Shown piece by piece: positions 1-26,451 of a stretch of 64,000 bases of DNA (positions are counted from its first letter, which is position 1; each line of letters opens with the position of its first letter). The notes under the pieces were generated by a model. It did no database searches. It was not told where the DNA came from and worked only from the letters and a program-made list of their open reading frames with translations. A program made the position numbers and the translations under genes. Source of the DNA: a virus (taxonomy: Duplodnaviria; Caudoviricetes); IMG/VR virus record IMGVR_UViG_3300021255_000152, positions 1 through 64,000 of that record; one strand, written 5' to 3'.

Positions 1-773
1 ACATTTTCCAGAAGTGCGCATCTTGTCAATAATCCAACTCCACCAGGAACAGGAGTTACCTTCGCTTCGCTACTTGCGCCATTATAAACATCTCCAACTA
101 GTTTGCTGCCATCCCAGTTAGTCCCCACATCAATAATGACCGCATCCTTTTTCGCCATACTCGCGTCTAAGAAGTGCGCTCGCCCCACCGCGCACACAAT
201 CAAATCCGCTTTCGCCACCATTTCATCCAACGTATGTACATTAGTTCGACTATGCGCCTGCACTACCGTCCAGTTCCTATCCAAAAGTAGCTTTGCTGTT
301 GGTTTTCCAGCCAATGGTCCTCTACCAATTACTAAAGCCAGTAGTCCAGTACCATCACCCATTCCCAGACTATCTAAATACGTAATAATCCCCTGCGCCG
401 TTGCGGGATTATACGGACTATCAGGTAAAAATCCATCCACATCCCTTTCAGGAGATAACGCAGCTTGGATTGCTTTATTTACGTCTAGTTCTTTTGGAAC
501 AGGTAACTGCACAATTAACCCATTGCTTTCATCCTGATTGATAATCTGCGCTAATTGCACCGTGGTAGGACAACTGTCTTTTGGAATTCTATACAAAGTA
601 GGTCTAATTCCTACTTCATTACAGTCCTTAATCTTATTATCTACATACTTTGTACTTGCTTGATAATCTCCTACCTGAATAATCGTTAAGGTAGGAGCTT
701 TATCCATTCGCGCAATCTTACTCTTTAACTCGTCCTTCCAATTGCGGACGAAGGTCTTTACATCTAAATACAT
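1..773 (-). CDS. folD: Bifunctional methylenetetrahydrofolate dehydrogenase/cyclohydrolase (3' end runs off the window)
   Basis: Manual translation: MYLDVKTF...IIQVGDYQASTKYVDNKIKDC...GLIVQLPVP...DVDGF...PATAQGI...VIGRGPLAGKP...IIDVGTN...KLVGDV...VTPVPGGVGLLT, all FolD hallmark motifs. Not in the ORF track because there is no stop codon inside the window. Confidence 0.95.
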   Translation of the reverse strand, partial: MYLDVKTFVRNWKDELKSKIARMDKAPTLTIIQVGDYQASTKYVDNKIKDCNEVGIRPTLYRIPKDSCPTTVQLAQIINQDESNGLIVQLPVPKELDVNKAIQAALSPERDVDGFLPDSPYNPATAQGIITYLDSLGMGDGTGLLALVIGRGPLAGKPTAKLLLDRNWTVVQAHSRTNVHTLDEMVAKADLIVCAVGRAHFLDASMAKKDAVIIDVGTNWDGSKLVGDVYNGASSEAKVTPVPGGVGLLTRCALLEN

Positions 774-775
774 AA

Positions 776-958
776 TTAATCGTCTATCAACTCCTCTGCA
801 CAATCTATTTGATAAATCTTTTCTAATAAAAAATTTACTATATCTCGTTGTGGAATTCGACACCACTTAGGACTATCATTATCAACATAATCCTTAACTG
901 CCAACAGTAAATGAATAACGTCTATGCGTCTAATTACATCACTACTTTTGATCATCAT
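776..958 (-). CDS. Small hypothetical protein (60 aa)
   Basis: ORF track; tightly packed between the upstream small ORF and folD on the same strand; TAA stop. Confidence 0.6.
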   Translation of the reverse strand: MMIKSSDVIRRIDVIHLLLAVKDYVDNDSPKWCRIPQRDIVNFLLEKIYQIDCAEELIDD

Positions 959-1109
959 TAATTTGAACCTTCTGAATTGTGATCTTCATATTTGGTTCAA
1001 GATAATATTTATTAAAAAGTCCCTGGACTAAAACCATTGCAGTTTCTAATGTCATATTCTCTGCGGCAAGGACACTATCAATATAAACACTAAACTTATC
1101 TTCTGTCAT
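942..1109 (-). CDS. Small hypothetical protein (55 aa)
   Basis: AAAGGAG RBS precedes the ATG at 1109 (MTEDKFSV...); TAG stop. Confidence 0.7.
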   Translation of the reverse strand: MTEDKFSVYIDSVLAAENMTLETAMVLVQGLFNKYYLEPNMKITIQKVQINDDQK

Positions 1110-1161
1110 AATATATCTCCTTTTTTTCATAAATATTATACCAAAAATTTTTGTCTTTTGT

Positions 1162-1190
1162 TTGACTTGCGCGCAAAATTCTGTTATAAT
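1162..1190 (+). promoter_or_regulatory. Sigma-A/sigma70-type promoter for the 1218 gene
   Basis: TTGACT-17 nt-TATAAT with an extended -10 TG. A leftward TGGTATAAT extended -10 lies at about 1135-1143 (divergent arrangement). Confidence 0.85.
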
Positions 1191-1217
1191 AGTTCTATAA
1201 ATACTGGGAGGAAGAAA

Positions 1218-2318
1218 ATGATCAAATTAGATTATTCTTTAAAAACTCCTGAAGAAAGATTAGAATTAGTTAAAAAGATATTAGAAGAAAATCCACATCC
1301 GAATTCTTCTTACTTAGAAATTTTAGCGAACTACTTAATCTTCTGTATGGAGAAAGAAGAGAAAAAGGAGAAAAAAATTCTCACTGAAAACCGTATGGCG
1401 ACAGTGAATAAAAGAGAAACTTCCTATGAAGGACTTGTATCCCAGTTTGAAAATGGAGAAGATGGTGTTTATAACATCACAAATAATGACAAACACGTAA
1501 TATTCCAACCAAAAATTTCAATAACAAAAAAAGATAGAGAAGATATACCAGAATTATCACAAACAGATGAAGCTATTGCGGCCTGGAGTGAGCGTCTCAA
1601 AAGATGCGAGGGTCGTGATGCATACATCGCCAAAACAGCACAAATAGACGCAAGAAAAGATCAATATATAATTAAACAACATCGTAAGCCTCCTGTTCAA
1701 GCTATGCATTTAGTGCATTCTGAACACCACACAGTTTTACCCGATAATACATGGATTGACGAAGATGGGAATGTAGTTTCAGAAGGAGTGTCCTTAACAA
1801 ATCCTACCGTCTGCTCAATAATTCTATGCAATTATTCTAAGTTGCGCCAGAATTGTTATGGAGACTTTTTTAGTGATACCTGATACCTTATGGAGGAATT
1901 TGATAAAGTTAGTTTGCGCGCATTGCATGACAAGCCTTTATATTACCGCTTAGTAGAATGTAAGATTGATGGTATGCAAAATGTAGAAATACAGGAAGTT
2001 TTAGAAGAAGAATTTGGTATTAAACATAGTCTTGAATATATCTCATCCCTTTGACGCAATAAAATACCTATCTTAATTGCGTCTGCGGCAGAAGATGATT
2101 TTCTTGACTGATATTATTTAAACATTGAAAAAGGTGTTTATAAACGTTGTAGCAGATGCGGTCAAATAAAATTAGCTCATAATAAATATTTTAGTAAAAA
2201 TAAAACAAGCAAAGACGGCTTCTATTCTATTTGTAAGGAATGTCGTAATAAGAAAAAGCCTAAATTTGAAGAAGATGGACAAAACCCCCCAATCTCATTC
2301 TCTAATTCTAAGAAATAG
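1218..2318 (+). CDS. Putative late transcription regulator, 366 aa (HTH-like segment plus C-terminal CxxC...CxxC Zn finger); 3 in-frame TGA=Trp
   Basis: GGAGG RBS. Reading through TGA at 1881, 2052 and 2109 gives ...KIDGMQNVEIQEVLEEEFGIKHSLEYISSLWRNKIP...CSRC...CKEC, ending in TAG. Function inferred from motifs and position. Confidence 0.75.
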
Positions 2319-2335
2319 AAAAGGAGGAATAATTT

Positions 2336-3574
2336 ATGGCTGATGTAAGCAAGAAAGATTTAATATTTTGTGAAAAATGTCATAGAACTTTAAAAAGGTC
2401 AGAATTTTATAAATCAAATAATTTAGAAAAATATCCAAACGGCGGAACTATTCCTATTTGTAAGAAGTGCGCGACAATGCACGTTAATAATTGAGATCCA
2501 TCTACGTTTCTTTGGATTCTTCAAGAAGCTGATGTCCCATATATTCCAAAAGAATGGGATCAGCTTTTAATGTCGTATGGAACAGATAAATCTAAAGTTA
2601 CTGGCTTAACTATTATTGGGCGATATATTGGTAAGATGCATCTTAACCAATATAAAAAGTATCGCTGGAGAGATAGTGAAGCATTGCGCTTAAAAGATGA
2701 AAAAGAACTTACCGAAGCAATGGAACGCCAAGGCAAGAGTCAAACAGAAATAGATGAGGTTCTTGAAGCTAACCGTTTTATAATTCCAGAAGGTGAGCTT
2801 AAGGAACCTGAGACTGCGGTTGCGCCGATGCCTGCGGATAATGGTCCAGAAGCATTTGTATCAATGCCTCTAGGGGGTAATTTTGATGACACTGCGATTT
2901 CTGCAGAAGAGCTTGGATTAACTGAAGATGATGTTCGTTATTTAAAGTTGCGTTGGGGGCGTGCCTATAAGCCAGAAGAATGGATTTATTTGGAACGTTT
3001 TTACCGCAATTTTGAAGAAACATATGATATTCACACAGCAGGTCATAAAGACACTTTAATGAAACTCGCAAAGGTATCTCTTAAACTTGACCAGTTAATC
3101 GACCTCGGAGATATTGAGGGTGCGCAAAAGGCTGAAAAAATGTATGATAGTTTAATGAAGAGTGGCTCTTTTACCGCACATCAAAACAAGGAGGAAGAAA
3201 AACGTGGAATCGATTCTCTTGGAGAAGTTGTTGCTCTTTGCGAATCAAAGGGCTTTATACCTAGATATTACGTTGATAGCCCAAAAGATAAGGTTGATAG
3301 AGTATTGCAAGACTTACAAGAATATACTCGTTCTCTTATTATGGAAGAAACTAATATCGGTGACCTCATTGACAATGCGGTTCGTCAGATTGAGCTAGAA
3401 AAACAAAAAGAAGCTGAAGCTGATTTAGATGGTCAGACAGAAGAAGAGGCTTTAGAAGAATCTCTATTCTCTGAAAATAAGCAATATCTTTCTGATAATG
3501 CTTTTACTGAATTTGGAGAATTTGAAGAAGAGTTAGAAGCAGAGAATGAAAAACTATTCTCAAAAGGAGAATAG
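2336..3574 (+). CDS. Putative terminase small subunit / Zn-binding packaging protein, 412 aa; TGA=Trp at 2492
   Basis: AGGAGG RBS; N-terminal CEKC...CKKC; joins the 2570 ORF in frame; lies directly upstream of TerL. Confidence 0.65.
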
Positions 3575-3576
3575 CT

Positions 3577-5406
3577 ATGTCATTACAAGATATTTTAGAT
3601 CAACACAAACAAGAAGATTTAAATGGCGTATCTCAAACAATTTGAGATTTATTAGATATTAAAAAATCAAGAAAAGTTGGTATATCGCATGAACGTATAG
3701 ACAATATAATTCCTGTAGCTCGAGATTATATAGCATATTGGAGAGAATACCCTGATATGTTTATAGATTTCTTACAAACAGGAATAGATGGGACTATTCC
3801 TGAAACAGGTTTAAGATTCTATTTCTATCAAAGAGTATTCTTGCGTGCGGCGATGCGTTATCGTTATGTTTATGCGGTATTCCCTCGTGCGTATTCTAAA
3901 TCATTCTTGTCAGTATTGACATTAATGTGCAGATGTATTCTTTATCCAAGAGCAAAGTTATTTGTAACTTCTGGTGGTAAGGAACAGTCTGCACAAATTG
4001 TTAAAGAAAAAGTTCAAGAATTATGTACTATGATTCCAGCTCTTGATAGAGAACTTGATCGTCGTTTAGGTAAAACTAGAGAAGGTAAGGACTATGTTAT
4101 TTATATGTTTAAAAACGGTTCTTACTTTGATAATATTGCGGCAAGTGAAAAGTCAAGAGGTAAGCGTCGTCATGGTGGTCTTGTAGAGGAGTGCGTAGGT
4201 GTAGATGGAGATATTCTCCAACAGGTTATTATTCCTACCATGAATATTTCAAGACAGTGTATGGATGGAAGTACGCATAATGAGGAAGTTCTTAATAAAT
4301 CACAGTTGTATATTACTACGGCAGGATTTAAAGGAACTTTCGCATATAATAAATTAATACAGACTTTGGTTCAAATGGTAACTGAACCAGATAAAGCCTT
4401 TGTAATGGGTGGTACATTCAAGATACCAGTTATTGCGGGCTTGCTTGATAAAGATTTTATTACCGACTTAAAGAAAGATGAAACTTTTAATGAAATTTCA
4501 TTCTTACGTGAGTATGAAAGTAAATGGGCTGGTTCTTCTGAAGATGCATTCTTTAAAGGTGAAGCGTTTGATAGAAACCGAGTTCTCCAAAAGCCAGAGT
4601 ATGAAGCATCTGGTCGTGCTAATGTTCAAAGTTATTATGTTCTTGCAATGGATGTTGCGAGAAAGAATACTGGACGAGATGGATGCGATAGCGTAATTTG
4701 TGTATTTAGAGTTGCGCCACAGAGCTATGGTGAAGTTTCATTAAAATATTTAGTAAATATTTATTCTCTTACAAATATGCACTTCGAAGACCAGGCAATT
4801 TGGGCGAAACGTTTGTACTATAAATATGACGCTCGTAAAATTGTAATTGATGCCAACGGTCTTGGTATTGGTCTTGTTGATTACATGGTTAAATCACAGG
4901 TTGATCCTTTAACGGGTGATGAATATCCTGATTTTGGTGTTGATAATGATGAAGAAGGATATTATAAGAGATTTAGAACAAATAATACAGAACAAGATGC
5001 AATGTATTTAATTAAGGCAAATGCGCCACTTAATACAGAAGCACATTCAAATGTTCAAACACAGCTTACTTCTGGAAAGTTAAAATTCCTTATTGATGAT
5101 CGTGCAGCTAAAGTAAAATTGCTTGGAACGCAAAAAGGAAAACAAATGACTCCAGAGGAAAGGTCAGAATACTTAAAACCTTATAATCTAACTTCCATAT
5201 TAAAAGAAGAGATGCTGAATCTTCGTGAGGAAAATGAAGGTGTTAATATTATATTAAAGCAAGCAAATAAATCTATTCGTAAGGATAAATTTTCTGCACT
5301 TGAATATGGATTATACTATATTAAACAATACGAAGATAGCAGACGTAAGAAAAAGAAACGTTTCGTTGCATCAGAATGACGATTCAGTTCCCACATCGGA
5401 GGTTAA
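3577..5406 (+). CDS. terL: Terminase large subunit, 609 aa; TGA=Trp at 3643 and 5377
   Basis: Walker-A-like PRAYSKS, RGKRR plus Walker-B-like GLVEE, ITTAG coupling motif, RNase-H-like LAMDVAR, IDANGLG and KDKFSA. Confidence 0.93.
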
Positions 5407-5408
5407 TT

Positions 5409-5765
5409 ATGAGAGCAAGTAGAGGCGAAATTAAGATTGAAGAAATATTAGAAGAAGCAGGATTGAACTTTAAAATGGAAGTATCTTTTGAGGGTTTGAA
5501 TAGTCCAAATGGGAAACCTCTTCGTTTTGACTTTGCGGTTTTTGATGATGATGGTAATCTTGATTTTCTTATTGAATATCAAGGACGTCAGCATTATGAA
5601 GCTAGTGGTAAGTTTGGCGGCAAAAAGGGTTTATACCAACAGCAGTTCAACGATGCGAAAAAACGTAGATTTTGTCAGCTCCATGATATAAAGTTAATTG
5701 AAATCCCATATACCGATGAGTATATTTTGGATTACGATTATATTATGACTAGAGCTGGTTATTAG
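5409..5765 (+). CDS. Small PD-(D/E)XK (Vsr/DUF559-like) endonuclease
   Basis: GGAGG RBS; motifs S.GE, PLRFDF, LIEYQGRQHY, D..K...C...IKLIEIPY. Confidence 0.8.
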   Translation: MRASRGEIKIEEILEEAGLNFKMEVSFEGLNSPNGKPLRFDFAVFDDDGNLDFLIEYQGRQHYEASGKFGGKKGLYQQQFNDAKKRRFCQLHDIKLIEIPYTDEYILDYDYIMTRAGY

Positions 5766-5776
5766 GAGGTGAGACC

Positions 5777-7387
5777 TTGGCCAGTAATAAAGAAAGACAG
5801 GAACAAATTAGAGAAAAAGGTTTTTCTATGAATGGTTCTTCCCAATACGGGAGCATAAAGGTCGGAACAAAAACTCTTGAAGATGCAGTTATTAATTTAG
5901 GAGCTTATCAGAAACTAAAAGATACTTCATGTTTAAGATTTTATGATAAGATAGCGATATTGCGTGCAATTGCGGAAAATGATGTTAAAGCAATTCGCGC
6001 AATATCTGACTTCTTCTATCGTACTAATGGTATCTATCAAAGAATTGTAAATTATTATGCAACAATGTATAGATATGATTGATATACTGTTCCTACTATT
6101 TATGATGATAAAATTCTTAGTAATGAAGAAAAAAGTAAAAAGGTTACTACCGAATGATTCAAAGTAATAGACTATTTGGATAATACAAACATTAGAGAGA
6201 TTACTCAAAATATTACATTTAAAGTTATTAAATATGGCGTATGCTATGGATATATGGTTGAAGGAAAAGATGGTATTCTTTTTCAGGAATTACCAGTAGA
6301 TTATTGTCGTTGTAGATATTATGTAAATAATCTTCCAGCGATAGAATTTAATATGGCATATTTTGATCAAAAATTTCATGATGTTAATTATAGAATGAAA
6401 GTTCTTAAAATGTTTCCAAAAGATATTCAAAAAGGTTATGTTCTTTGGAAAGAGAGAAGATTAACTCCTGATTTTGAGGGAGATACAAGTGGTTGGTATT
6501 TACTTGACCCAGGTAGCGCTGTTAAATTTTCTTTGCCAGGAACTAATGAAATTCCTTTTTTCATTAATGTAATTCCATATTTATTAGATTTAGATGCGGC
6601 ACAAGATTTAGATCATCGTAAGCAATTACAGGATTTATTGAAAATAATTGTCCAAAAGTTGCCTATTGATAAAAATGGTGATTTAATTTTTGATGTAGAT
6701 GAAGCAAGAGATATTCATAACAATACAGTAGCAATGCTTCATCATACCATCAACACAGATGTTATTACAACATTTGCTGATGTTGATTCTATTGATTTAT
6801 CTGATACTACGAATGTAGATAACGATGATTTGGAGCGTGTTGAACGTTCTGTGTATAATGCCGCAGGTGTTTCTAAAAACTTATTTAATTCAGACACGAA
6901 TTTATCTATTAATAATTCTATTTTACAAGATGAAGGCTTGATGCGCAATTTAAAGTTGCAATTCGAGAAATTATTTGATACAATAATTCAGAGAAGAATG
7001 CCTAATAAAAAGAAATATACATTTAGATTTTATATTTTAGATACAACACAATATAATTATAAAGAATTATCAAAAACATACAAAGAACAGATGACTGTTG
7101 GATTTGGTAAGATGCTTGCGCAAATTGCATTAGGTCATACACAAAATTCAATTTTGGCAACAGCATTCTTTGAAAATGATGTATTATCACTTAGCACTGT
7201 TATGATTCCACCAATGATGTCTTCTACAATTGGTAGTGAAGATATTCAAACTTTGGGCAAAGGAGGTAAAACTCAACCTTCTGAAGGTCAAAATACTACA
7301 GGAAGTGATAATAAGGGTGGTAGACCAGCTAAAGAAGCAACAGAACTTTCTGATAAAACCATCCAAAATAAAGAAAGTCAGAAGTAG
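5777..7387 (+). CDS. Portal protein, 536 aa; TGA=Trp at 6080 and 6155
   Basis: AGGAGG RBS with TTG start; two track ORFs join in frame; size and position between TerL and protease fit a portal. Confidence 0.85.
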
Positions 7388-7398
7388 GAGGAAATTAA

Positions 7399-8694
7399 AT
7401 GCCACAGCACACAAGTATAGCATTAAATTCTCCAGTTGAAATTCTTCATGATTTGGTACCACTAAACCCACTTATTAGTAAATGCCAAATCAAGGTTTGT
7501 TATGTAGGAGATGAGCCAAACCGCAATGGTAGCGTTATTACAAAAGCTGTTGCGAGAGAAATGGCGAGATCCCTTCCTGGTTCTCCTATCGTTGGTTATT
7601 ACAACGAAACAAGCGAAGACTTTGAAGGACATAATCAAATTATTGATATTTCAAATGGAGAGTGGAAATTTAAGGACACCACTCAACCTTATGGTTTCGT
7701 AGATTGAAACGCTAAGGTTTGGTTCCAGAAATTCCTCGATGATGGGGTTGAACATGAATACCTCATGACTGAGGGATATTTATGGACAGGTCAATATCCA
7801 GAGGCAAAACGTGTTATTGAAAAAGGTAACAACCAGTCTATGGAACTTGATGAGAATACTTTGCAGGGATTTTGGTCAGAAGATGATAATGGAGGACCTT
7901 CTTTCTTTATTATCAATGAAGCTATAATCTCTAAACTCTGTATTCTTGGGGAAGATGTTGAACCTTGCTTCGAGGGTTCTCAGATTACCAGAGTTCAGTT
8001 CTCTTTTGAAGAGAGCATGCAGAAGAAATTATTTAGTATGATGGAACAGGTTAAAGAGATTATTAAAGAAGGAGGTAATTCCGTGGAGAATGAAGTAAAG
8101 AATCCAGAAATGGAAAATGAAGAAGTTAAGCCAGAAGAAGAAACTCCTGAAGTAGAACAGGAAGAAAAGCCTGAAAAAGAGAATCCTGAAGAACCTGAAG
8201 TAGAAGCTCCAGAGAAAGAGGACGAACCTGAAGAGGAGCAACCTGAAGAAGAAGAGGAAACTCCTGAGGAAGAGGGCGAAGTTAATAAATATAATCTTGA
8301 CGAAATTCAAGAATATATAGAATTAAAGGCTAACTATGAAGAGTTAGAAACTAAATTCAACGAAATGAAAGCTGATTATGACAAGCTTGTAGAATTCAAG
8401 AATGACGCTGACCGCAAGGAAAAGCAAGCCATGATTGACCAGTTCTATATGCTTTCTAATGAAGACAAGAAAGATGTAATTGAGAATATTGACAATTACT
8501 CTGTCGATGAAATCGAAGCAAAGCTTTCTGTAATTTGTGTTCGTAACAAGGTAAGTTTTGATCTTGACGATGATAGTGAAGACGAGGAGAAAACTCCTAC
8601 ATCTATCTTCAATCTTGAAAATGATGGAATTGAAGATGATATCACACCTGCTTGGATCAAAGCAGCTTTAGCTACGAAGAAAGAAATGGAATAA
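7399..8694 (+). CDS. Prohead protease with acidic scaffold C-terminus, 431 aa; TGA=Trp at 7705
   Basis: NRNGS, GH, EGYLW, QSMEL and LCILG.DVEPCFE motifs, then a Glu/Pro-rich linker and coiled coil; lies between portal and capsid genes. Confidence 0.85.
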
Positions 8695-8712
8695 TATAGG
8701 AGGAAGACAAGA

Positions 8713-9453
8713 ATGGCTAAAACAAGATTAAGTGAAAAAGCCACATATGTCACTCGTGGTTACGGACAAGTTGAACCTAACCATTTATCAGCTCAGAAGA
8801 CAGGTCAGATCTATGCACAGTTACCTGCTGCAGCAAACATTAACATTCTTGAGAATGGTCAGTTTGCTACTTATAACTATGCTGCAGCTGATGGTGGAGC
8901 AGTAGATTTTTCTGGTGCTGGCGAGTGGATGATGGTCTTTAATGAAATTAAGCTTTATCGTGATTTCGAACAGGATTGCGATTTTGCAATGAAGAAAGAA
9001 GATTATGTGGCTCGTGTATATAGCCCAATTGATGGCACTCAGCCATTAACAGAATGGCAGTCTCGTTTCTATGGCCAGTATGCAGGTGTAGATTCTCAGG
9101 GTAATCCTATTCTTAACCCAGAGCGTGTTACAACACCAGCTGACCCATATGAAGTTGATTCTACAGACGATCCATTCAAGACAACTCAGAATTATAAGAC
9201 ACCTAAGTATATGGCAGAAGGAACACGCATGGTTCCTCGTCTCTTTAAGATTAATGTTGGCGATATTTGGACAACAAATACTATTAAAGCAGAACCAGGC
9301 AGCCTCAAAGTTGGTCAGTTCCTTACACCAGATGCAGATGGTTATCTAAAAGTTGGACAGGGTGCAGATGCTCAGCATCCAACAATGGAGATTGTTAAGG
9401 TTTATACAATGCCTGATATGCAACCTGGCGTAAAGGTTATGCGCGTTAAGTAA
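8713..9453 (+). CDS. Putative capsid decoration/cement protein
   Basis: Intact 246-aa ORF between scaffold and MCP; codon bias typical of highly expressed genes; no TGA. Confidence 0.65.
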   Translation: MAKTRLSEKATYVTRGYGQVEPNHLSAQKTGQIYAQLPAAANINILENGQFATYNYAAADGGAVDFSGAGEWMMVFNEIKLYRDFEQDCDFAMKKEDYVARVYSPIDGTQPLTEWQSRFYGQYAGVDSQGNPILNPERVTTPADPYEVDSTDDPFKTTQNYKTPKYMAEGTRMVPRLFKINVGDIWTTNTIKAEPGSLKVGQFLTPDADGYLKVGQGADAQHPTMEIVKVYTMPDMQPGVKVMRVK

Positions 9454-9471
9454 TAGAAAGGAGTAAAGGAC

Positions 9472-10584
9472 ATGTTAGATAAGAAGAATTTCGTACAATT
9501 AGCTAAGATTGTTGCTAAAGCTGATCCTAAGGCTCCTCAGGCGTATAGCTACAACGGCGCTAATTTTAATTATGCTGAACTCAATGAAACACTTCGTAAA
9601 GAGTTCAATGAAATTGCTGGTACATACCAGTTATATCGTGAAAACAAGAATTTAGTATTCTCTATTATTGAAGAAACATTAAATGACGTTCTTCCACAGA
9701 AGGTCATTGAAAACTACGGTCAGTTTGCTGAAGTTAAGACTTTCGCACAGGGCGATAAGCCATTGTTCCGTAGAAAGATTGATGGCACAAATCGTGCTAA
9801 GCAGTTCATTACAAGAGTAGGACTTGCTGGTGATTATGAAGTATTCAAGCTCGCTAAGAGTTCTGAAAGCTTCGAAGTACCAACTAGTGCTATCGGTGGA
9901 GCTGCACAGATCGGATTCGAGGAATTCCTTGATGGTCGTGCTGACTTCGCAGAACTTACAAATATCGTAATGGAAGGTATGGATGACCTCGTTTATGAGG
10001 AAATCGGTAAGGCTCTTGAGGGTGCTATTAATCAGCTTCCAGCTATGAACCGCGTTGTTACAAATACATTCGATCCTGCATCTTTCGATGAACTCGTTCG
10101 TATGGCTGAATCTTATGGTAATGTAACAATCTACTGCACAAACGAATTTGCAGTTAAGATGATTCCACAAGAAGCTTGGAGATACACAGAAGCTATGAAG
10201 GATGAACTTTACAGAACAGGTCGTCTTTCTGGTTATCGTGATAAGAATGTTGTTATTCTTCCAAATGCTTACAAGGATATCATTTCTGGTAAGGAAAAAG
10301 TTATTGATCCTTCTTTCTGCTGGATTATTCCATCTGGCGCAGATACAAAGCCTGTTAAGGTCGCTTTCGAAGGTGACACACTTGTTGATGAGCGTGCTAA
10401 CCGCGACTGGAGTCGTGAAATCCAGGTTTATAAGAAGGTTGGCGTAACTTGCATGATGAACAATGCAATTTGCGTTTATAAGGATACATCTCTTTCTAAG
10501 AATGGTGCATTCAACCTTGCTGATACCGTTCAGAATATTGTTCATGTAGTTGATGATTCTCAATCCGGTAAAGAAGGGGACTAG
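9472..10584 (+). CDS. Major capsid protein
   Basis: 370 aa, strong RBS, synteny, strong codon bias, no TGA. Confidence 0.85.
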   Translation: MLDKKNFVQLAKIVAKADPKAPQAYSYNGANFNYAELNETLRKEFNEIAGTYQLYRENKNLVFSIIEETLNDVLPQKVIENYGQFAEVKTFAQGDKPLFRRKIDGTNRAKQFITRVGLAGDYEVFKLAKSSESFEVPTSAIGGAAQIGFEEFLDGRADFAELTNIVMEGMDDLVYEEIGKALEGAINQLPAMNRVVTNTFDPASFDELVRMAESYGNVTIYCTNEFAVKMIPQEAWRYTEAMKDELYRTGRLSGYRDKNVVILPNAYKDIISGKEKVIDPSFCWIIPSGADTKPVKVAFEGDTLVDERANRDWSREIQVYKKVGVTCMMNNAICVYKDTSLSKNGAFNLADTVQNIVHVVDDSQSGKEGD

Positions 10585-10979
10585 TGACGGCAACCGCCAG
10601 TAAGTTGGCCACTCTTCCATCTTGGGACGCACATTATGCAGACATGCAGACCAATAATGGGGCGGTTGGAGTCGAACAAAGTGGTAACACTGTTGCGCTT
10701 AGCTTTGACGATGATGCATTAGTTACATTCCCATCTTCAAATGCGGCACAGGGTGAGCATAAATGGGTTGGTCTCGATATTGCTACTAACTTAGACAGTA
10801 TCGTAGGTGCAACTTGGAATGGTTCTGAGTTAACTCAGGCAGATGCGGATGAAGCAGCAGGCGTAGGTCTTGCGGCAGGTCACATCGTATTCTGGATTAA
10901 AGCAGACGCATTACCTGTTTCTGTAACTATTGGAGCAGAAGGTAAAGAGGCTGCAACATTGACATTCCAAAAAGCTTAA
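10584..10979 (+). CDS. Small beta-rich virion protein, possibly a frameshift extension of the MCP
   Basis: GTG overlaps the MCP stop (TAGTG) in the -1 frame; followed by a terminator. Confidence 0.7.
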   Translation: MTATASKLATLPSWDAHYADMQTNNGAVGVEQSGNTVALSFDDDALVTFPSSNAAQGEHKWVGLDIATNLDSIVGATWNGSELTQADADEAAGVGLAAGHIVFWIKADALPVSVTIGAEGKEAATLTFQKA

Positions 10980-10994
10980 TTAAATACTTTAAAG

Positions 10995-11034
10995 AATAAG
11001 GGGAGTAGGGGTAAATCCCCTCTCCCCTTATTTT
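10995..11034 (+). terminator. Intrinsic terminator after the capsid genes
   Basis: AATAAGGGGAG-T-AGGGG / CCCCT-CTCCCCTTATT hairpin followed by T residues. Confidence 0.8.
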
Positions 11035-14858: not shown

Positions 14859-15923
14859 ATGAAATATGGTGTTCGTGACGTCGTTGACGTTGTACTAAGA
14901 GCTAAGGGAACAATGGATCTTGGAAACAAACGTTTCTACAAGAATGAACCTGTATTATATTTCGATACGCTTACTACTTCCACATTAGAGGGTGCTTCCA
15001 CAACTGTATATGCGCAGGGTGGTAAAGGTAACGCTCGTTTAATGGCTTGGGAAGGTGAACGTACTGTTACTTTCACAATGGAAGATGCTTTGATCTCACC
15101 AGAAAGCCTTTCTATTCTTACTGGTGCAGGTTTAATTGAAGCTTCTGAAGCTGCTCCTATTTATCAGCACATTGTTGAAACTACAGATGATTATACTCTT
15201 GGCGATGGCAGTTTAACAGTTAATGTTGAAAAACTACCTTTCTTACCAAAGCCACCAGTTGCTGATAGCGATCCAGCAATTCCAGTAGAGGAAGAGAACT
15301 ATGCTTGCGTAATGTTTACTAAGGATGGCGAAATCGTTTCTGAACCTTATATCGTTAGCCAGCAAGAAGCAAATGGAATTAAGCAGACAACAGATGGCAA
15401 GTATATTATTGTTGTTAATGAACATACTTGCAACTTCGGTAAGAGATGCCATGACTCTGGTGAGGTATATACACCAGCAGACCTTGCTCTTGATGAAAGC
15501 AAAGCAAATGGTGTATTAGTAGATTACTACACACCTGTTAAGAAGGGTGCTAAGCAGATTGAAATCGATGCTGAAAAGTTCGCTGGTTCTTACTACCTTG
15601 AAGGTTCTACTCTTTGGAGAGATACTAATGGTGTAGATCACCCAGCAGAATTCATTATCCCTAACTGCAAGATTCAGTCCGCATTTACATTTACAATGGC
15701 TGCAACAGGCGATCCATCTACATTTACATTCACAATGGATGCATTCCCTGATTACACTCGTTTTGACAGAACACACAAAGTATTCGCTGTTATTCAGCTT
15801 ATGGAATCCCAGACAGCTGCTTCTGATGCCGAAAATGATCTCCATCGTGGTAGAACATGGCATGCAGACGGTGTTGCATCTCGTGTATATGAAGATGAGG
15901 GAATTGATAACCACGATAACTAA
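14859..15923 (+). CDS. Major tail (tube) protein
   Basis: 354 aa; GGKGN...TFTMEDAL and IPNCKIQSAFTFTMAATGDPSTFTF segments; strong RBS and codon bias; no TGA. Confidence 0.8.
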   Translation: MKYGVRDVVDVVLRAKGTMDLGNKRFYKNEPVLYFDTLTTSTLEGASTTVYAQGGKGNARLMAWEGERTVTFTMEDALISPESLSILTGAGLIEASEAAPIYQHIVETTDDYTLGDGSLTVNVEKLPFLPKPPVADSDPAIPVEEENYACVMFTKDGEIVSEPYIVSQQEANGIKQTTDGKYIIVVNEHTCNFGKRCHDSGEVYTPADLALDESKANGVLVDYYTPVKKGAKQIEIDAEKFAGSYYLEGSTLWRDTNGVDHPAEFIIPNCKIQSAFTFTMAATGDPSTFTFTMDAFPDYTRFDRTHKVFAVIQLMESQTAASDAENDLHRGRTWHADGVASRVYEDEGIDNHDN

Positions 15924-18205: not shown

Positions 18206-21200
18206 ATGCCAAAACAGTTAAATGTAAATATGGCCTTTACTGCGGATACTTCGCAAGCTAAAAGACAGTTACAGGATTTACAAAAGCAATTAACAGAACT
18301 TGGAACAAAAAATTTAGCTACTACTAAATTTATAAATCCTAAAGATATCCAAGAAGCTTCTCACGCAATAGCTCAATTAAAAACGCAATTAACTGAAGCT
18401 ACAAACACAAATACTGGTACTTTAGATTTATTTAAATTTAAAGAGCAATTAGACCAAGGTGGAATATCTCTTGCTCAATATAGAGAGCAGTTTGCTAAAT
18501 TAGGTCCTGCTGGACAGAAAGCCTTTAATGATTTAACCGATTCTATTTTAGCGGCAGAAGTTCCTTTAAAAAGAAGTCATGCGCTTTTAGATCAGTTTTG
18601 AACTGCTTTAAAAAATACTGCAAGATGGCAAATTTCTAGTAGTGCATTGCATGGTTTTATGAGTACATTGCAAGGTGCTTATGGCTATGCACAAGATTTA
18701 AATAAATCTTTAAACAGTATTAGAATAGTTACTGGTCAATCTACTGATCAAATGGCTGAACTTGCTACACAAGCAAATAAAACTGCACAAGCATTAAGCA
18801 CTAGTACTCTTGCTTATACAGATGCAGCGCTTATTTACTATCAGCAAGGTTTGTCTGATGATGAGGTTGCGGAAAGAACAGAAACAACTTTAAAAATGTC
18901 TAATGTAACTGGAGAATCTGCAGATGAAGTATCTAGTTATATGACTGCTATCTGAAACAACTTCAGAAAGGGTGGAGAATCTCTTGAATCTTTTGCAGAT
19001 AAAATCACTGCATTAGGTGCAGCAACTGCTTCAAGTTCTCGTGAAATTGCGGGTGGCTTACAACAATTTGCCGCAATTGCTGATACCGTTGGTTTAAGTT
19101 ATGACTATGCTGCGAGTGCTCTTGCGACAGTAGTTGCGCAAACTCGTCAATCTGAATCTACTGTTGGTAATGCATTTAGAACTATTTTTTCAAGATTAGA
19201 AGGATTAAAACTTGGAGAAACTCTTGAAGATGGAACAGATTTAAATAAGTATTCTGGTGCATTACAAACTATTGGTGTTAATATTAAAGATCAGAATGGT
19301 GATCTTAAACAGATGGATACCATTCTTGAAGAAATTGGTGCTAGATGACAAACTTTAAGTAGAGATCAACAGGTTGCTTTAGCTCAAACTGTTGGCGGTG
19401 TTCGTCAATATAGTAATTTAATTGCATTATTTGATAACTGGGATACTTTTCAAAGAAATCTTGCAGTATCAATGAATGCTAGTGGAACTTTAGATGAACA
19501 AGCTGAGATATATGCTGAATCTTGAGAGGCAGCTAAAAAACGTGTTAAAGCAGCAGCTCAAGAAATTTATCAAAATTTAATTGATGAGGATTTTTTTATT
19601 GGTGTATCAAATCTTACTGAAGATTTATTGCATCAAATTAATGGTATAATTGAAGCTTTCGGCGGATTAAAAGGGGTTTTATCTACTGTTGTTGCATTGG
19701 TTCTACAGTTAAAAGGTGCAGATATCGGAAGGGGTCTTTCAACCGCTTTATATAATCTTACTCCTGCATCTATTAAGCAAGAAGCTTCTATGAATATTAA
19801 AAAAGAAGCTATTGGCACAGAAAAAATTGATGCGGTAGATCAAACAGAATTTGCAAAAACACAAGCTAATAATTTAAATAATTATCGAAAATTACAAGAA
19901 GATATTCTTGCAAAATCTGAGCAATTAACTCAAGCAGATCGCAATCGTTTAACGATTTTATTAGATCAAAATAAAGCATTACAAAAAAATACTGAAGAAC
20001 TTGCTAAACAATTAGATGAAGCTAAACAACAAACAGATGATGCAATGACAAAAATGTATCGTTCTGTTAGTAAAGAACAAAGAGATAGTCTCAAAGAGGC
20101 ACTTCTTCTCGGTGCCAATGGAGAAGATTCTTTTGAAAAGCAGCTTACAGATGCATATACAAATAAAATGAACGCTTCTAATGCGAATGATTCAGCTGCT
20201 GCAGCAATGGAAATTGTTGGAATTGAAGATCAACTCAAGGAAAAATTTACTGGAAGCAAAGAGGCTGTCGAAGCATATTCTGAAGCAATTGGCAGACAAG
20301 TACTTCAGCAACAAAAATATTCGGATGCTGCTAAAATATTAGAAAGTCATACCGAAGGAATTACCGCTAAAATGGGAGCTGCCTCTGAAATTATGGCACC
20401 CGTTGGTAGCGCAATAGTTGATGTTGCAATGAGTTTTGCTTCATTGGTATCTGCAATCAATGCTTTTAAAGGAATTTGAGAAACTATTCAAAATCCAGAT
20501 TTAAGTCTTTGGCAAAAATTAGTATCTATTATTCCCGCCTTGGCGATGGCTCTTACTACATTAACTAGAGTTCAGCTTAAATCAAATCTAGCTTCTTTAA
20601 AAGATGGAATTATTAGAGCCGGAACAATTGTTGCAAAAATAAAAGATACTGGTGTTACTGTTGCTAATACTGCTGCAACAGAAGCTAATACCACTGCAAA
20701 GGGCAAAAATACTGGAGCGACAGCTGGAGCAACTGCTGGATCTATTGCTCATGCAGGAGCGCAAACTGCTGAAACGGGAACAACTATTGGTTTAACGGCA
20801 GCTTTAAGTGCGCTATGGTCTGTTTTATGGCCTATTGCTTTAGCTTTAGGTGGATTAGCTGCATTAATATGAGCAATTGATGAAGGCGTATATACTGCTA
20901 ATGAACGTATTGCTGATGCTAATAAAGAATTAGAAAAATCAGAAGAAAACTTAAATAGAGTTTCTGATGCTGTTAGTAAAGCAAAGCAAAATTATGATGA
21001 TTTATCTAGTGTTTTTGATAAATTTGAGGCTCAACAAGAAAAAATTGCTAATTTAGATGAACATACTAGAGAATGAAATCAAACTATTAATGAAACTAAT
21101 AGTGAGTTATTAGATACTTTAGAAAGACTTGGTTTATTAGATGAACTAAGTGGAAAGTTAAAAAGAGATGGCAATGGTCTTCTTTATTTATCTCCTGAAG

Positions 21201-24200
21201 ATCAAGAGGCTGCTTTGGAAGCAGCTAATCAGCAACTTGCCTTTATGCAAGCAGTTAAAACCGTATCTTCAATTAGTATGGTTGATGCTAAAAAGAATGC
21301 TGATTTAGCAAGAATTGCTCAGGGCGTTGATATTGAAGAAACTAAAACTACTAGAGATTTAAAACGAACAGCAGGTAATGGTTCTCAAGAAGGAACTTAT
21401 GAAGTTGTTGGTGAAACTACTACTACTAATAAATGAAGCGATGCGCAGGTTTATGATGCAATTACTTCTGCTGCTCAAAAAATTGCCGATAGCGAAGAAT
21501 TTGTTGGAAAATCCTCCGAAGATTTGCAGCGAATTTTAAGCGATGAAGGAGATACTTTAAATTCTCAATTAAGTGGTATTTTAAAAGATATCCCTGATAT
21601 TAAAAATAGAAAAGATATTTTAGATGCTATTGCCAATGCGGCTGATACAATTGTAAATGCTGAAAATAGCGCAGATGCTTTTGAATCAGAATTAGGTCGT
21701 CAAGGATTGGAATCTTTAGGATTAAATGAAGGTATTCCAGAGTATGCAATGAATGAAGTCTATCAAATGGTAGGCCAAAAACTTGCAGAAGCTATTAATC
21801 CTGAAGCTGTTCGAGCAGAAGCTAGCCGATTAATGACAGATCCAACGAGTGAAGACTCTAGGGCCGCATTAGATAGTTATGTTTCTAAAATAAATGCAGG
21901 TGGAGAACAAAAAGTCCATGTAGATGCTTTTGGTTCTATTATAGATGATGCCACTAATTCAAAAGTAGATTTTTCTTGAGCAGATGTTGCTCAAGTAAAA
22001 TTAGCTGAAGATGCTATTACAAATGCAGATCGTGATGAATTAGAAGGAATTATTGATACGGCTAAACAGTCAGCAAAAGAAGAAACTGAGAAAGTCGTAG
22101 CAGAAAAATTTAATGAAGTATTTGGAACAAGCTCTTCTGTTTCTTCTATGACAGACGAGGAATTAGATTCTGCGAATAAAGCTTCTAAAGAAGATCTTTC
22201 TGAATATGAAAGTGAATCTGATTATCTCAAATATGGCGCAGATCAACATTCTCATGGATTAAATATTGATGCAGATCAATTAAATCAATTTAAAGGAAAA
22301 ACTGAAGATTTAAATGCAGAAGTTCAAAAACTTTCAGGTTATTTAAGAGATAATGTTGATGATATTGCAGAACTAGATGAAAGTTTAAAATATTGTCAAG
22401 AAGGTCTTGATTCTATCGCTTATTCAATGATTCGTTTTGATGATGCTCTTCAAGATGTTGAAAAAAATTACGATGATTGAAAGTTATTATTAGATTCTGG
22501 AGATTTATACAGTAATGCTAAAGCGGTTAGTGAATTAAGAACTGCATATTCTAATTTGCTTGATATGGATGCCAGCGATTTTAATCAAGAATTCCTTACA
22601 AGCGCAGAAAATTTAGAATTATTTAATAAAGTATTAACTGGAACAGAAGAAGAAGCAACTGCTGCTTATAATGAATTAGCACGTTTAGCAGAAGTTAGTT
22701 ATCTCCAAGTTACATTAGATGTTGATAAAAGTGAAGCAGAAAGTATTGTAAATTGATTCCAAGGAATTGCAGATCAGCTTAGTAGTTATCCAATTCATAT
22801 GGAAATTGATGATGCGGACGCAATTGCGAAACTTGAAAGCTTCGTTAATAATGTAGCATCTTCTGCAGATCAGGCCGCAGCAATTCTTTCTGAAATGGGT
22901 TATGATGCTGAGGTTACTCAAGAACCTGTAACAGAGGAAGAAAGACGTAAAATCGTTGATTTAGTGCCTAAAGAACTTCCTGGTATTTCAGTAGATATTC
23001 CTGTTGCCGCCGATGATCCAAAAAATCCTATAAAGACAAAAACCGTAACTTATCCAGGAGTTGGATATAATGGAATGCCATCTGATGTAGTTGCTAAATC
23101 TCAAAAAACTGCAACTGCTTTAAAGATTAAATCTTTACGTAAGAATGGTAAAGGTGCAAGTGGAGGAAACATTAAAGTTAAAAATTCTCCAGCGCGTTCT
23201 AGTTATCAAGATAAGAGTAACAAAGGCGGAGGCGGTGGAGGAGGCGGTGGTTCTAAGAAAAAAACCGTTAAAGAGCATACCAAACCTGTTAAAAACGAAG
23301 ACCGCTATCACGATATAAAAGAGCGTATTGATGATTTAAATAAATCATTAACTCGTTTAGGAAAAACTGAAGACAGAATATACGGTAAAGCGAAACTCAA
23401 GTATATGGATATGGAAATTGAAAAACTTGAGGATCAAATTAAACTTACCGATGAATATATAAAAGAAATTAAAAAATATGCAGCTATTGACCAAGCTAAT
23501 TTACGTGGCATTGGAATGGGCGCAGAATTTGATGAGAATGGAATGCTTACTAATTATGAGCAAGTTCTTGCAAATATTACTAATTCTTATAATGCCGCTA
23601 TTGGAGCTTATAATGGAGCAGTAGATGCATTTAATGGAAGTGCGCAAGAAGAGAGCGATAATGATGCCCTTGAAGGCGCAAAGAAACAACTTGATGCTGC
23701 AAAAGAAACTTATGATGAAAATCAGAAGATTTTAAAGCAGTATGAAGATACTTTTAATTTACTTCAAGAGCAAGTAGATAAACGTATAGATCAAGTATGA
23801 GCACTATTTGATATGCGTTTAAAGAAAATTACTTTTGAAGTAGAATTTGAAATTAATTGAAACGAAAGAGAACTTAAATATCTTGATTGGCTTTTAGAAA
23901 ATATTGGTGATACTGCTGATAGGGGTGTTGATAAAATCGCAAATCTTGCTCAACAAATGAACGAATATGCCGATACTATTGAGTGAGCTAAGAAGGGTAT
24001 TCAAGGTATCTTTGGATTGCATGGTATTAACTTTGATTTTGATAATGCTGATCCAGTAGCATTAACAGATCAATTAACTGATGCAATGCATCGTTTAAAT
24101 TTTGAATCTCAATTGACTGAAGATGAAGCTAATGCGCTTCTTGATTATTGCGACACTCTCATGGAGGCTATTGATGGTATTCGTGATAAATGGAAGGCAG

Positions 24201-26368
24201 CGCATGAAGCGGTTAATGATACATGAGATAAGTGAAATGAACGTCTTGAAAGAGAAACTGATAGATTAGAAAATTATGCTAAAGAAATGGAAAGCATAAA
24301 AAATATTATTGATCTTACAGGACGTAAAATGTTAGGTCTTTCAACACAAGATATTGACAAGATGAATCAATCTCAGATTGAAAATAACTGAGCGCAAGTA
24401 GAATCTTGAAAAGCTATCATGGAAGCTCGTAAAGCATCTATGGAAGAAGCTAAATATTATATGGAAAATGCTCAAACAGAAGAAGTTCGTGAAGAATGAA
24501 GAAAGAGTTATGAACAGTTTGAGGATGATTATAATGCTGCGCATCAAAATTATTATTCAGCATGAGAAGATACTTTAAAGAAAGTCCAAGATGCGTTTGA
24601 AGAAACAATGGATAATCTTGGAAAAGATTATAACGATGCAATGGGTGATTTAACACTTCTTCAAGAGCAGTTTGCGCGAAAGCAAGAAGTAGATCATTTA
24701 TATCTTGATGATTATGAGAAATATCATGAGTTAAATAAATCTTCCGATGAACTTCGTAAGAGTCTTGAGAATACCAATAGCACAATGATGAAGTCTAAGA
24801 TGAATGACCTCTTGGATGAGATGAATGCATCTATGCGTGATGGTGTTCAAATTTCAGAAGCACAGGCTGAAATATATGCACGTAGAGTAGCATTATTACA
24901 AGCCGAAGCTGAGCTTTTGGATGCGCAAAATGCTAAGAGCGCAGTTCGCATGACTCGTGATAATGAAGGTAATTTCAGTTATACTTATACAGCAGATCAA
25001 GATCAAATTGATGATGCTGAGGGTAACTTCCAAGATAAGTTCTATGAAGTTCTAGATTATGAACGTCAATATATGGAAGATATTCAAGGTCAAATGTTAG
25101 ACATGACAGAGCAATTCTGGAGTGATTATTATGACCTTTGTGAAAGATATAAAGATGATTCAACTGCATTAGAAGAGGCTATTGAGGGTTTAGTAGATGA
25201 CTATAATTTAAAAATGGATTTCTTAGTATCTGAACAAGAGATGGATATGGGTGAAATGGCTCGTTTGAGAGATGAAGACTGAAAAGACTTTGAAACTCTT
25301 ACTGGAAAGAAACTTGCCAATCAAAATGATTTTATAACTAAGTTTAAAGAAACTATTGTCGGAAGATTGCGTCCTCAATATCAAAATGCAAATGACTATG
25401 CAACTCAATGGCAAAAGACAGTAGAGAAAACTACTCAAGAAGGAAATAAGGCTGTAGATAAATATCAGACTAACACTCAAAAAACATTTGAGAAAGCCGG
25501 AGAAAATATTACTACTTATGGAAATAAAGCTGTTGAGAAAATGAATGATATTGCCGCACAAAGTCAAACAACCAAAGACAATGTTACTACAATGGCTGGA
25601 CAAATGCAAATTGATATGGGTCAAGTTATGACTACGGCATGAAGTCTTGATAGTACATGAGCTACGGTTATGAATAATATGCGTACTCAAATTCAGCAAA
25701 CGGTAAGTGCTTTATACACATTATTACAAAGATTACAAGAAGTTCAGCGTCAAGCACAAGCTACCATTGCTGCTTGTGCAGCTGCTGCTCAGGCTCAAGC
25801 AGCCGCCGCCCTTGGTGGAGGCGGAGGTGCCGGTGGCGGCGGTGGTGGAGGAGGAACCGGTGGAGGTTCTGGCAATACTACTACAGGTAATAATGGTACT
25901 ACGTATAAGGTAGGCTTTGTTTCCGAAGATGGAAGTATGGGACAACAAACCTATACTTTTAAAGATAGACAAAGTGCTAATAATTTCTTAAGAGAAGTAG
26001 ATAAAACTAATGATATGGCTTGAAAAATTGGTTGAGCTACTGGTGGTTATACTGGAGCTTGAGGTCCAGAAGGAAAAATAGCTATGCTTCATGAGAAAGA
26101 ATTGGTTCTTAATAAAGAAGACACTTCTAATATTCTTAATGTAGTAGATAGTGTTCGTAATATGGTAAGTAATTTTGGTCGCAATGCATTAAATGATATT
26201 GCTAGTGCTATTACGAATTCTGGTTCTTTGGCGTTAGCTGGAACTGGAGTAATGGATCAAAATGTTCATATTGAAGCAAATTTTCCTAACGTACAATCTC
26301 ATACAGAGATTGAAATGGCGTTAAACAATCTTGTTAATTCTGCTGCTCAATATGTTAATCGTAAATAA
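18206..26368 (+). CDS. Tail tape measure protein, ~2720 aa; about 26 TGA=Trp
   Basis: 14 track fragments share one frame; TP901-type core (YMTAIWNNF...VGNAFRTIFSRL), hydrophobic segments, coiled coils and C-terminal ATGGYTGAWG...AMLHEKELVLN. Confidence 0.92.
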
Positions 26369-26405: not shown

Positions 26406-26451
26406 GGCCAATTACTTGTCATAAAGCCGACGTTTTTTTTATAATAAAAGA
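26406..26451 (+). promoter_or_regulatory. Candidate phage late promoter motif
   Basis: GGCCA-N10-A-N17-TTA directly after a terminator; same spacing as the other copies. Confidence 0.5.

Follow-up and report, generated by a model that had tools for sequence, protein, structure and literature searches.

Phages that reassign a stop codon have been described in which the early genes keep to the standard code, the late and lysis genes are recoded and the phage itself supplies a suppressor tRNA, and for TGA a 'code change operon' has been reported that holds TrpRS, RF1 and the tRNA (Borges et al., 10.1101/2021.08.26.457843; a further source on stop-codon-recoded phages is 2021, PMC7886860). The gene considered here, P0001, lies at positions 1218-2318 (plus strand) of a 64,000-nucleotide window, the first 64 kb of the 138,028-bp virus record IMGVR_UViG_3300021255_000152, which belongs to a gut phage with 34% G+C. 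The same partition between standard-code and recoded genes is reportedly the model of Yutin et al. for crAss-like phages, and in Firmicute siphoviruses the regulator RinA is encoded 5' of terS. An earlier note on this DNA had proposed that P0001 is a master switch gated by recoding, that is, a late regulator whose DNA-binding parts lie behind TGA codons. Our data suggest that P0001 is probably a conserved DNA-binding protein with ordinary recoded codons, that its delayed synthesis is a by-product of belonging to a recoded module and that it may act on later virion operons.

When translated under table 4, in which TGA encodes tryptophan, P0001 comprises 366 codons, from an ATG at 1218 to a TAG stop at 2316-2318, and is preceded by a ribosome-binding site (GGGAGG, 1206-1211, plus strand, as read from the sequence) that lies 6 nt 5' of the ATG and of which GGAGG is kept in relatives. 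Three in-frame TGA codons occur on this strand, namely codon 222 (1881-1883), which is a stop under the standard code, codon 279 (2052-2054), which falls within the predicted recognition helix, and codon 298 (2109-2111). The table-4 translation bears out the earlier statement that the first 221 codons are free of TGA and that the first one stands at 1881. The further statement that the standard code would yield only a truncated protein also holds, as translation under table 11 terminates at 1883 and gives a product of 221 residues from the ATG, with the DNA-binding segment and the zinc ribbon lying beyond it. In the family alignment of 88 diverse homologues, the column of codon 222 contains Trp in 22 sequences and Tyr in another 22, while Trp occupies the columns of codons 279 and 298 in 78 and 64 sequences, respectively. 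Five TGA-recoded lineages have TGA at codon 222, where the TAG-recoded ones have TGG, and codon 279 is TGG in most recoded relatives. The bunching of the three TGAs 3' of codon 221 is not remarkable, because P0001 has only five Trp codons and the chance of TGA falling on exactly the last three of them is 1 in 10.

The gene was compared across 18 IMG/VR loci and Enterococcus phage EF1. The gene itself, the consensus promoter in front of it and the order of genes as far as the large terminase (TerL) are conserved in 15 loci and across TGA-recoded, TAG-recoded and unrecoded relatives, and a reassigned codon is present in the P0001 gene of every recoded lineage, of TGA or TAG type alike. TGA-recoded lineages carry two to four TGAs in the gene (at sites 123, 176, 214, 222, 279, 295 and 298), and TAG-recoded relatives, in which TGA is a stop, carry three to four in-frame TAGs (codons 9 or 20, 111, 217, 259/260 and 263), partly in Gln columns; the genomes of these relatives encode a tRNA(UCA) or a tRNA(CUA) that matches their own recoding. 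Within this one phage family (L017-L022), in which gene order is shared and proteins are 65-67% identical, TAG-recoded phages occur alongside TGA-recoded and unrecoded ones, and in the TAG-recoded members the P0001 gene ends in TGA. Across the recoded relatives the first reassigned codon is number 9, 20, 123, 176, 214 or 222, and a conserved role for the 221-residue truncated product was rejected because of this spread. The TGA load of P0001 is 8.2 per 1000 codons vs a mean of 7.1 for the recoded block (three of five Trp codons, or 60%, vs 49%), and in nine lineages its load of reassigned codons is that of the phrog_3314 and TerL genes. As five Trp codons at 49% TGA would leave a gene TGA-free in only 3% of cases, the universal occurrence of reassigned codons in P0001 needs no selection to explain it. 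The TGAs of P0001 look like ordinary recoded codons rather than a purpose-built switch, and the gating of the DNA-binding part that had been claimed is not upheld by this comparison, in which the reassigned sites shift and the codon load is ordinary. That P0001 belongs to the recoded set of every recoded lineage fits the idea that the protein is not synthesized before the code change.

The part of P0001 beyond the first TGA is, with high confidence, predicted to consist of a sigma-region-4-like helix-turn-helix (HTH) and a zinc ribbon. An AlphaFold2 model built with 88 sequences has a predicted local distance difference test score of 88.6 for the whole protein and 96.1 for residues 192-352. 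It places a four-helix HTH of the sigma region 4 type at residues ~215-302 (1860-2123, plus strand), with predicted HTH helices at 255-266 and 272-302, and a C4 zinc ribbon at residues ~306-346 (2133-2255, plus strand), whose cysteines 311, 314, 339 and 342 (CSRC and CKEC) are invariant across the 88 homologues. The HTH-like segment singled out in the earlier note (KIDGMQ...SSLW) corresponds to residues 249-279, and in fold comparison the C-terminal domain matches sigma region 4; the model and the invariant cysteines thus agree with the claim that an HTH and a zinc finger lie behind TGA codons. In PHROGs, residues 32-346 fall in phrog_5767, labelled 'sigma factor' (E=1e-45), and HNH, endonuclease VII and Lar proteins have zinc ribbons that match its C-terminus. 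The family is large, with more than 6000 metagenome homologues after clustering at 90% and 1312 representatives at 50%. In BFVD, the matches were confined to zinc ribbons and to fragments of homologues. Two BFVD entries from Siphoviridae sp. ctB3v5 (A0A8S5M8I9 and A0A8S5M936) are the gene of a recoded relative split into a 223-residue 'Stc1 domain' piece and a 96-residue piece; as public annotation splits the recoded gene, the family's database entries are in part fragments.

A gene map of the whole record was built under table 4, and TGA and TGG codons were counted per block. The recoded block runs on the plus strand from 1158 to ~71.9 kb and continues with a minus-strand operon (72.1-77.8 kb) and a further plus-strand group (77.9-83.3 kb); it holds 188 TGA vs 193 TGG codons, with at least one TGA in 35 of its 55 genes, and encodes the terminase, the portal, virion proteins, very large tail genes and a GH25/CW_7 lysin. 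The early block, consisting of 62 minus-strand open reading frames (ORFs) at 83.3-138 kb, has 207 TGG vs 19 TGA codons, the latter confined to seven ORFs, and among its ORFs of at least 80 amino acids (n=61) the stop is TAA in 49, TAG in 11 and TGA in one. P0001 opens the recoded block, and the last of the TGA-free genes (folD and small ORFs) are transcribed divergently from it. A few genes of the recoded block contain Trp and no TGA (window positions 8713-10979, 14859-15923 and 57963-60467, with 3, 3, 4, 3 and 11 TGG codons); these likely encode abundant virion proteins, namely capsid and tail proteins and the product of an 834-codon gene at 57963. The tape measure gene (18206-26368) has 26 TGA vs 9 TGG codons, and the overall pattern suggests that TGA is shunned where a high protein output is needed. 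The 834-residue product of the TGA-free gene at 57963-60467 was also considered as a phage RNA polymerase of the SPbeta YonO type, an assignment that was dropped as it finds no support in PHROGs.

Indirect but consistent evidence makes it very probable that the host is a walled Firmicute with the standard code, because the early genes are poor in TGA and use TGG, the phage lysin (GH25 with CW_7 cell-wall-binding domains) binds the wall, the phage carries both a tRNA-Trp(CCA) and a tRNA(UCA), the hosts of cultured relatives (Enterococcus, Brevibacillus, Geobacillus and Mammaliicoccus) are code-11 Firmicutes, and the phage encodes an RpoD-like sigma factor that is ~50% identical to the RpoD of Lachnospiraceae and Bacilli. 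A host that itself uses code 4, which the earlier note had named as the case in which no gating could occur, is therefore very improbable. As the host very probably uses the standard code, it is well supported that full-length P0001 requires suppression of UGA by the phage tRNA-Trp(UCA), and the claim that the full-length protein appears only after TGA suppression has gained support. The Trp-tRNA of Bacillus subtilis reads UGA at low efficiency; leak-through past P0001 would be negligible, since three UGAs stand in series, each poorly read.

Only one tRNA with the anticodon UCA was found by ARAGORN (genome 82481-82552, plus strand), together with 23 ordinary tRNAs in the early block that include the tRNA-Trp(CCA); the two are ~72% identical and have the same D arm, anticodon stem-loop and T arm. 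A mini-operon on the plus strand (genome 81818-83292, L001:17818-19292) contains the tRNA(UCA). Its promoter, TTGACT-18-TATAAT (genome 81818-81847), is followed by two TGA-free ORFs, the first of 61 residues and the second Hsp20-like, and then by a hairpin and the tRNA; a GT8 glycosyltransferase gene in which TGA occurs three times comes next, and after it a bidirectional terminator. The layout of promoter, ORFs and tRNA recurs in two TGA-recoded relatives (L031:1499-2290 and L029:640-1540). In one relative, the two halves of the tRNA(UCA) are separated by ~190 nt just past the anticodon loop, probably by an intron, and the tRNA is missed by ARAGORN; in another it is 95 nt long. ARAGORN also reports a candidate resembling transfer-messenger RNA within the phage tRNA region (genome 132745-133054, minus strand).

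P0001 is preceded by a sigma-A-type promoter with an extended -10 element (1162-1190, plus strand; TTGACT, 17 nt, TGtTATAAT) that agrees with the consensus at 11 of 12 positions and is the top match within positions 1-4000. The -35 TTGAC and the TG-TA.AAT of the -10 region are invariant in ten aligned lineages, including the unrecoded Enterococcus phage EF1, and sit 26-42 nt 5' of the start codon in all of them, while the flanks diverge, a phylogenetic footprint that makes a chance occurrence unlikely. The near-consensus sigma-A promoter reported earlier at the first gene of the late region is thus confirmed, and promoters of this type also serve the TGA-free early block. It need not be read by the host, since the phage carries a complete RpoD-like sigma factor with regions 1.2, 2, 3 and 4, encoded by a TGA-free gene of the early block (genome 120676-121713, minus strand; L003:16676-17713), which could stand in for host sigma-A at the consensus promoters of the phage, including that at 1162. 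The cultured Enterococcus relatives seemingly lack such an RpoD-like sigma factor. Downstream, the gap between P0001 and the next gene is 18 nt and contains no terminator, a scan of positions 1190-11000 gave only weak intragenic terminator matches, and the first strong intrinsic terminator (GGGGAGTAGGGG...CCCCTCTCCCC followed by a T-run; intergenic, 10995-11030, plus strand) ends an operon that reaches from P0001 to the capsid genes. TerL (3577-5406, plus strand; phrog_15503, phrog_24618 and terminase phrogs) is part of the same transcription unit. An HNH/homing-endonuclease gene of 129 codons (window positions 5376-5765), which is TGA-free, overlaps the 3' end of the large terminase gene, and in the Enterococcus relatives the terminase gene is interrupted by endonuclease insertions.

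In the reading that we consider probable, P0001, whose N-terminal domain is predicted to be helical, would come first in an operon for packaging and head genes in a large siphovirus of Firmicutes and be transcribed from the extended -10 promoter by host sigma-A or by the phage RpoD-like sigma factor. Full-length P0001, like the products of the other TGA-containing genes of the recoded block (35 of 55), would await the build-up of tRNA-Trp(UCA), which would be transcribed downstream of two TGA-free genes from a sigma-A-type promoter of its own. This arrangement would amount to a feed-forward delay, in which one class of promoter yields both the mRNA and the suppressor that are required for the protein, and the delay would be a side effect of membership of the recoded module rather than the work of a dedicated HTH gate. 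Judging by its fold and position, P0001 would most likely act on later virion operons as a sigma-like factor, an activator or an antiterminator. Past ~11,000 the late block contains at least eight strong terminators, several with a ribosome-binding site immediately after them, and sigma-A-like promoters are few (a -10 at ~17,550 and promoters at 26416 and 47813), which leaves room for an activator or antiterminator without proving one.

Several results weigh against this reading. The TerL, portal and capsid genes are on the P0001 transcript, and as they are co-transcribed, with no terminator before ~11,000, initiation there is independent of P0001. No distinct late-promoter motif was found upstream of the late operons, several of which are preceded by sigma-A-like promoters or follow their terminators too closely for a promoter to fit. 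Pfam searches with P0001 and with the 88 family members gave no sigma or HTH family and no Sigma70_r2, and an NCBIfam scan of the C-terminal domains of the 88 members, with E up to 1, gave no RinA or ArpU model; one of the 88 members had a stray match to a sigma model (E 0.018). Comparison of the family profile with an RpoD profile in hhalign gave a probability below 1%, a profile search of PDB sequences yielded nothing meaningful for the family, and Foldseek found no match in the PDB for the whole or the C-terminal model. The whole model can be aligned with Staphylococcus aureus SigB over residues 102-293, but with a root-mean-square deviation of 7.6 Å, and no fold could be assigned to the N-terminal 190 residues, where sigma region 2 would be expected. 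Since sequence methods provide no sigma link and the N-terminal half is without assignment, P0001 is best named a predicted sigma-4-like HTH and zinc-ribbon protein and is not a proven sigma factor. The late activator or antiterminator of the earlier note keeps the backing of the sigma-4-like fold and of the place at the head of the block, but its role as a master switch is left without support by the co-transcription of the head genes, and the notion of a host-type promoter that drives such a switch is weakened by these shared transcripts and by the phage RpoD. The GGNCR/GGCCA motif that had been offered as a target is not enriched in intergenic DNA (six of 48 plus-strand copies are intergenic vs ~3.5 expected), which is not convincing, and it was dropped as a late promoter.

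A stronger version of the gating idea holds that selection set the TGAs in front of the DNA-binding parts, so that the code change switches on all late transcription. Of the TGAs, the first does stand ahead of the HTH and the second within the recognition helix, reassigned codons occur in the P0001 gene of every relative of TGA or TAG type, and sigma-A-type promoters stand at both the suppressor tRNA and P0001. However, the reassigned positions are not conserved, the load is no higher than in phrog_3314, TerL or the block as a whole, universal presence can be explained without selection, the head genes share the P0001 transcript and a target motif was not found, all of which make this version improbable. 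More improbable still is a Q-like processive antiterminator that loads at its own promoter and carries polymerase through the terminators of the 70-kb late block. The strong terminators of that block, several of which leave no promoter room before the next start codon, would suit such a protein, as would a loosely conserved TATAAA-like element 3' of the -10, but conservation of this -10-like element is weak and the genome is AT-rich, and the terminators may be leaky attenuators of the kind that follow many capsid genes. We regard as possible, though doubtful, a scheme in which P0001 licenses transcription through the 70-kb virion block in an SPbeta/EF1-like lineage, and in which the recoded branches, TGA and TAG independently, have tied P0001 to the suppressor mini-operon, so that a code change upstream of late transcription would serve as a feed-forward timer.

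The position of P0001 also invites a role in packaging, in which the protein would not be a transcription factor and would act with phrog_3314 as a small-terminase-like DNA-recognition partner at a pac or cos site. The next cistron, phrog_3314 (2336-3574, plus strand), begins 18 nt 3' of P0001 and encodes 412 residues with an N-terminal zinc ribbon, and one type of ribbon (CxxC...F/Y...DG...CKxC) is found in both adjacent genes, at the C-terminus of P0001 (2133-2255) and at the N-terminus of phrog_3314 (2345-2460). The order P0001, phrog_3314, TerL is found in all close relatives, with P0001 two genes 5' of TerL, and the model of P0001 has a long helical hairpin (residues 111-156) like the oligomerization cores of small terminases. 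On the other hand, P0001 does not show the fixed adjacency to TerL looked for in a small terminase (one to five genes lie between, in varying number), as the Enterococcus phages have an inserted PhoH-like gene and five genes separate the P0001 homologue from TerL in Brevibacillus phage Sundance. In Sundance a YonG-like gene adjoins TerL, a place taken by phrog_3314 in the Enterococcus phages, the window and its IMG/VR relatives. Because it adjoins TerL where the spacing of P0001 varies, phrog_3314 appears the likelier candidate for a small terminase, judging by gene order. The match of P0001 to a small-terminase fold is a single one, whereas matches to sigma region 4 domains are more numerous and rank higher, and at 350-370 residues the protein is about twice the usual size of a small terminase. 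We consider a packaging role unlikely, and continue to favour a DNA-binding protein that acts on later virion operons.

The general recoding model is already published (Borges et al., 10.1101/2021.08.26.457843), and the P0001 locus is a clean and conserved example of it. As in the phages described by these authors, the early genes are compatible with the standard code, the structural and lysis genes contain the reassigned stop, a phage suppressor tRNA is present, the host is probably a standard-code Firmicute and related lineages have TGA, TAG or no recoding; the reassigned stop of the late genes stands at conserved residues and is nearly absent early, and the suppressor tRNA matches it. Unlike in their code change operon, genes for RF1 and TrpRS were not found across the record, which is estimated to be 79% complete, and the tRNA follows a small ORF and an Hsp20-like gene. 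Their text describes no recoded sigma factor or late regulator (the word 'sigma' has 0 occurrences), and a full-text literature search for this combination returned only the Lak megaphage paper. A timer layer of the kind proposed, with the code change upstream of late transcription, is not known from the recoded-phage literature. If P0001 truly controls late transcription, recoding would delay late transcription as well as translation, giving a timer of two layers.

Like RinA and ArpU, P0001 is a predicted sigma-4-like HTH protein that heads a packaging and morphogenesis module, in the window and in 15 related loci. It is ~2.5 times larger than they are and differs from them further in its zinc ribbon and additional N-terminal domain, in having no match to an NCBIfam or Pfam model of these families and in the 18-nt gap behind it, which leaves no room for a separate late promoter. 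The closest counterparts are the phrog_5767 proteins of Enterococcus phages EF1, EF5, H1 and VRE9_1-4, Brevibacillus phage Sundance (gp013) and Geobacillus virus E3. The name 'sigma factor' is an annotation label for this family, and the note on the Sundance protein reads 'luxR family'. Homology to P0001 extends over the full length (39% identity in Enterococcus phages, 27% in Sundance), and there, too, the gene follows this consensus promoter and opens the packaging module. P0001 thereby belongs to an uncharacterized and very abundant family of phage regulators, as the more than 6000 metagenome homologues indicate. Unlike the P0001 phage, the cultured phrog_5767 phages use the standard code and have no translation delay, and such unrecoded relatives (EF1, VRE9) make the function of the family directly testable and transferable to the uncultured recoded phages.
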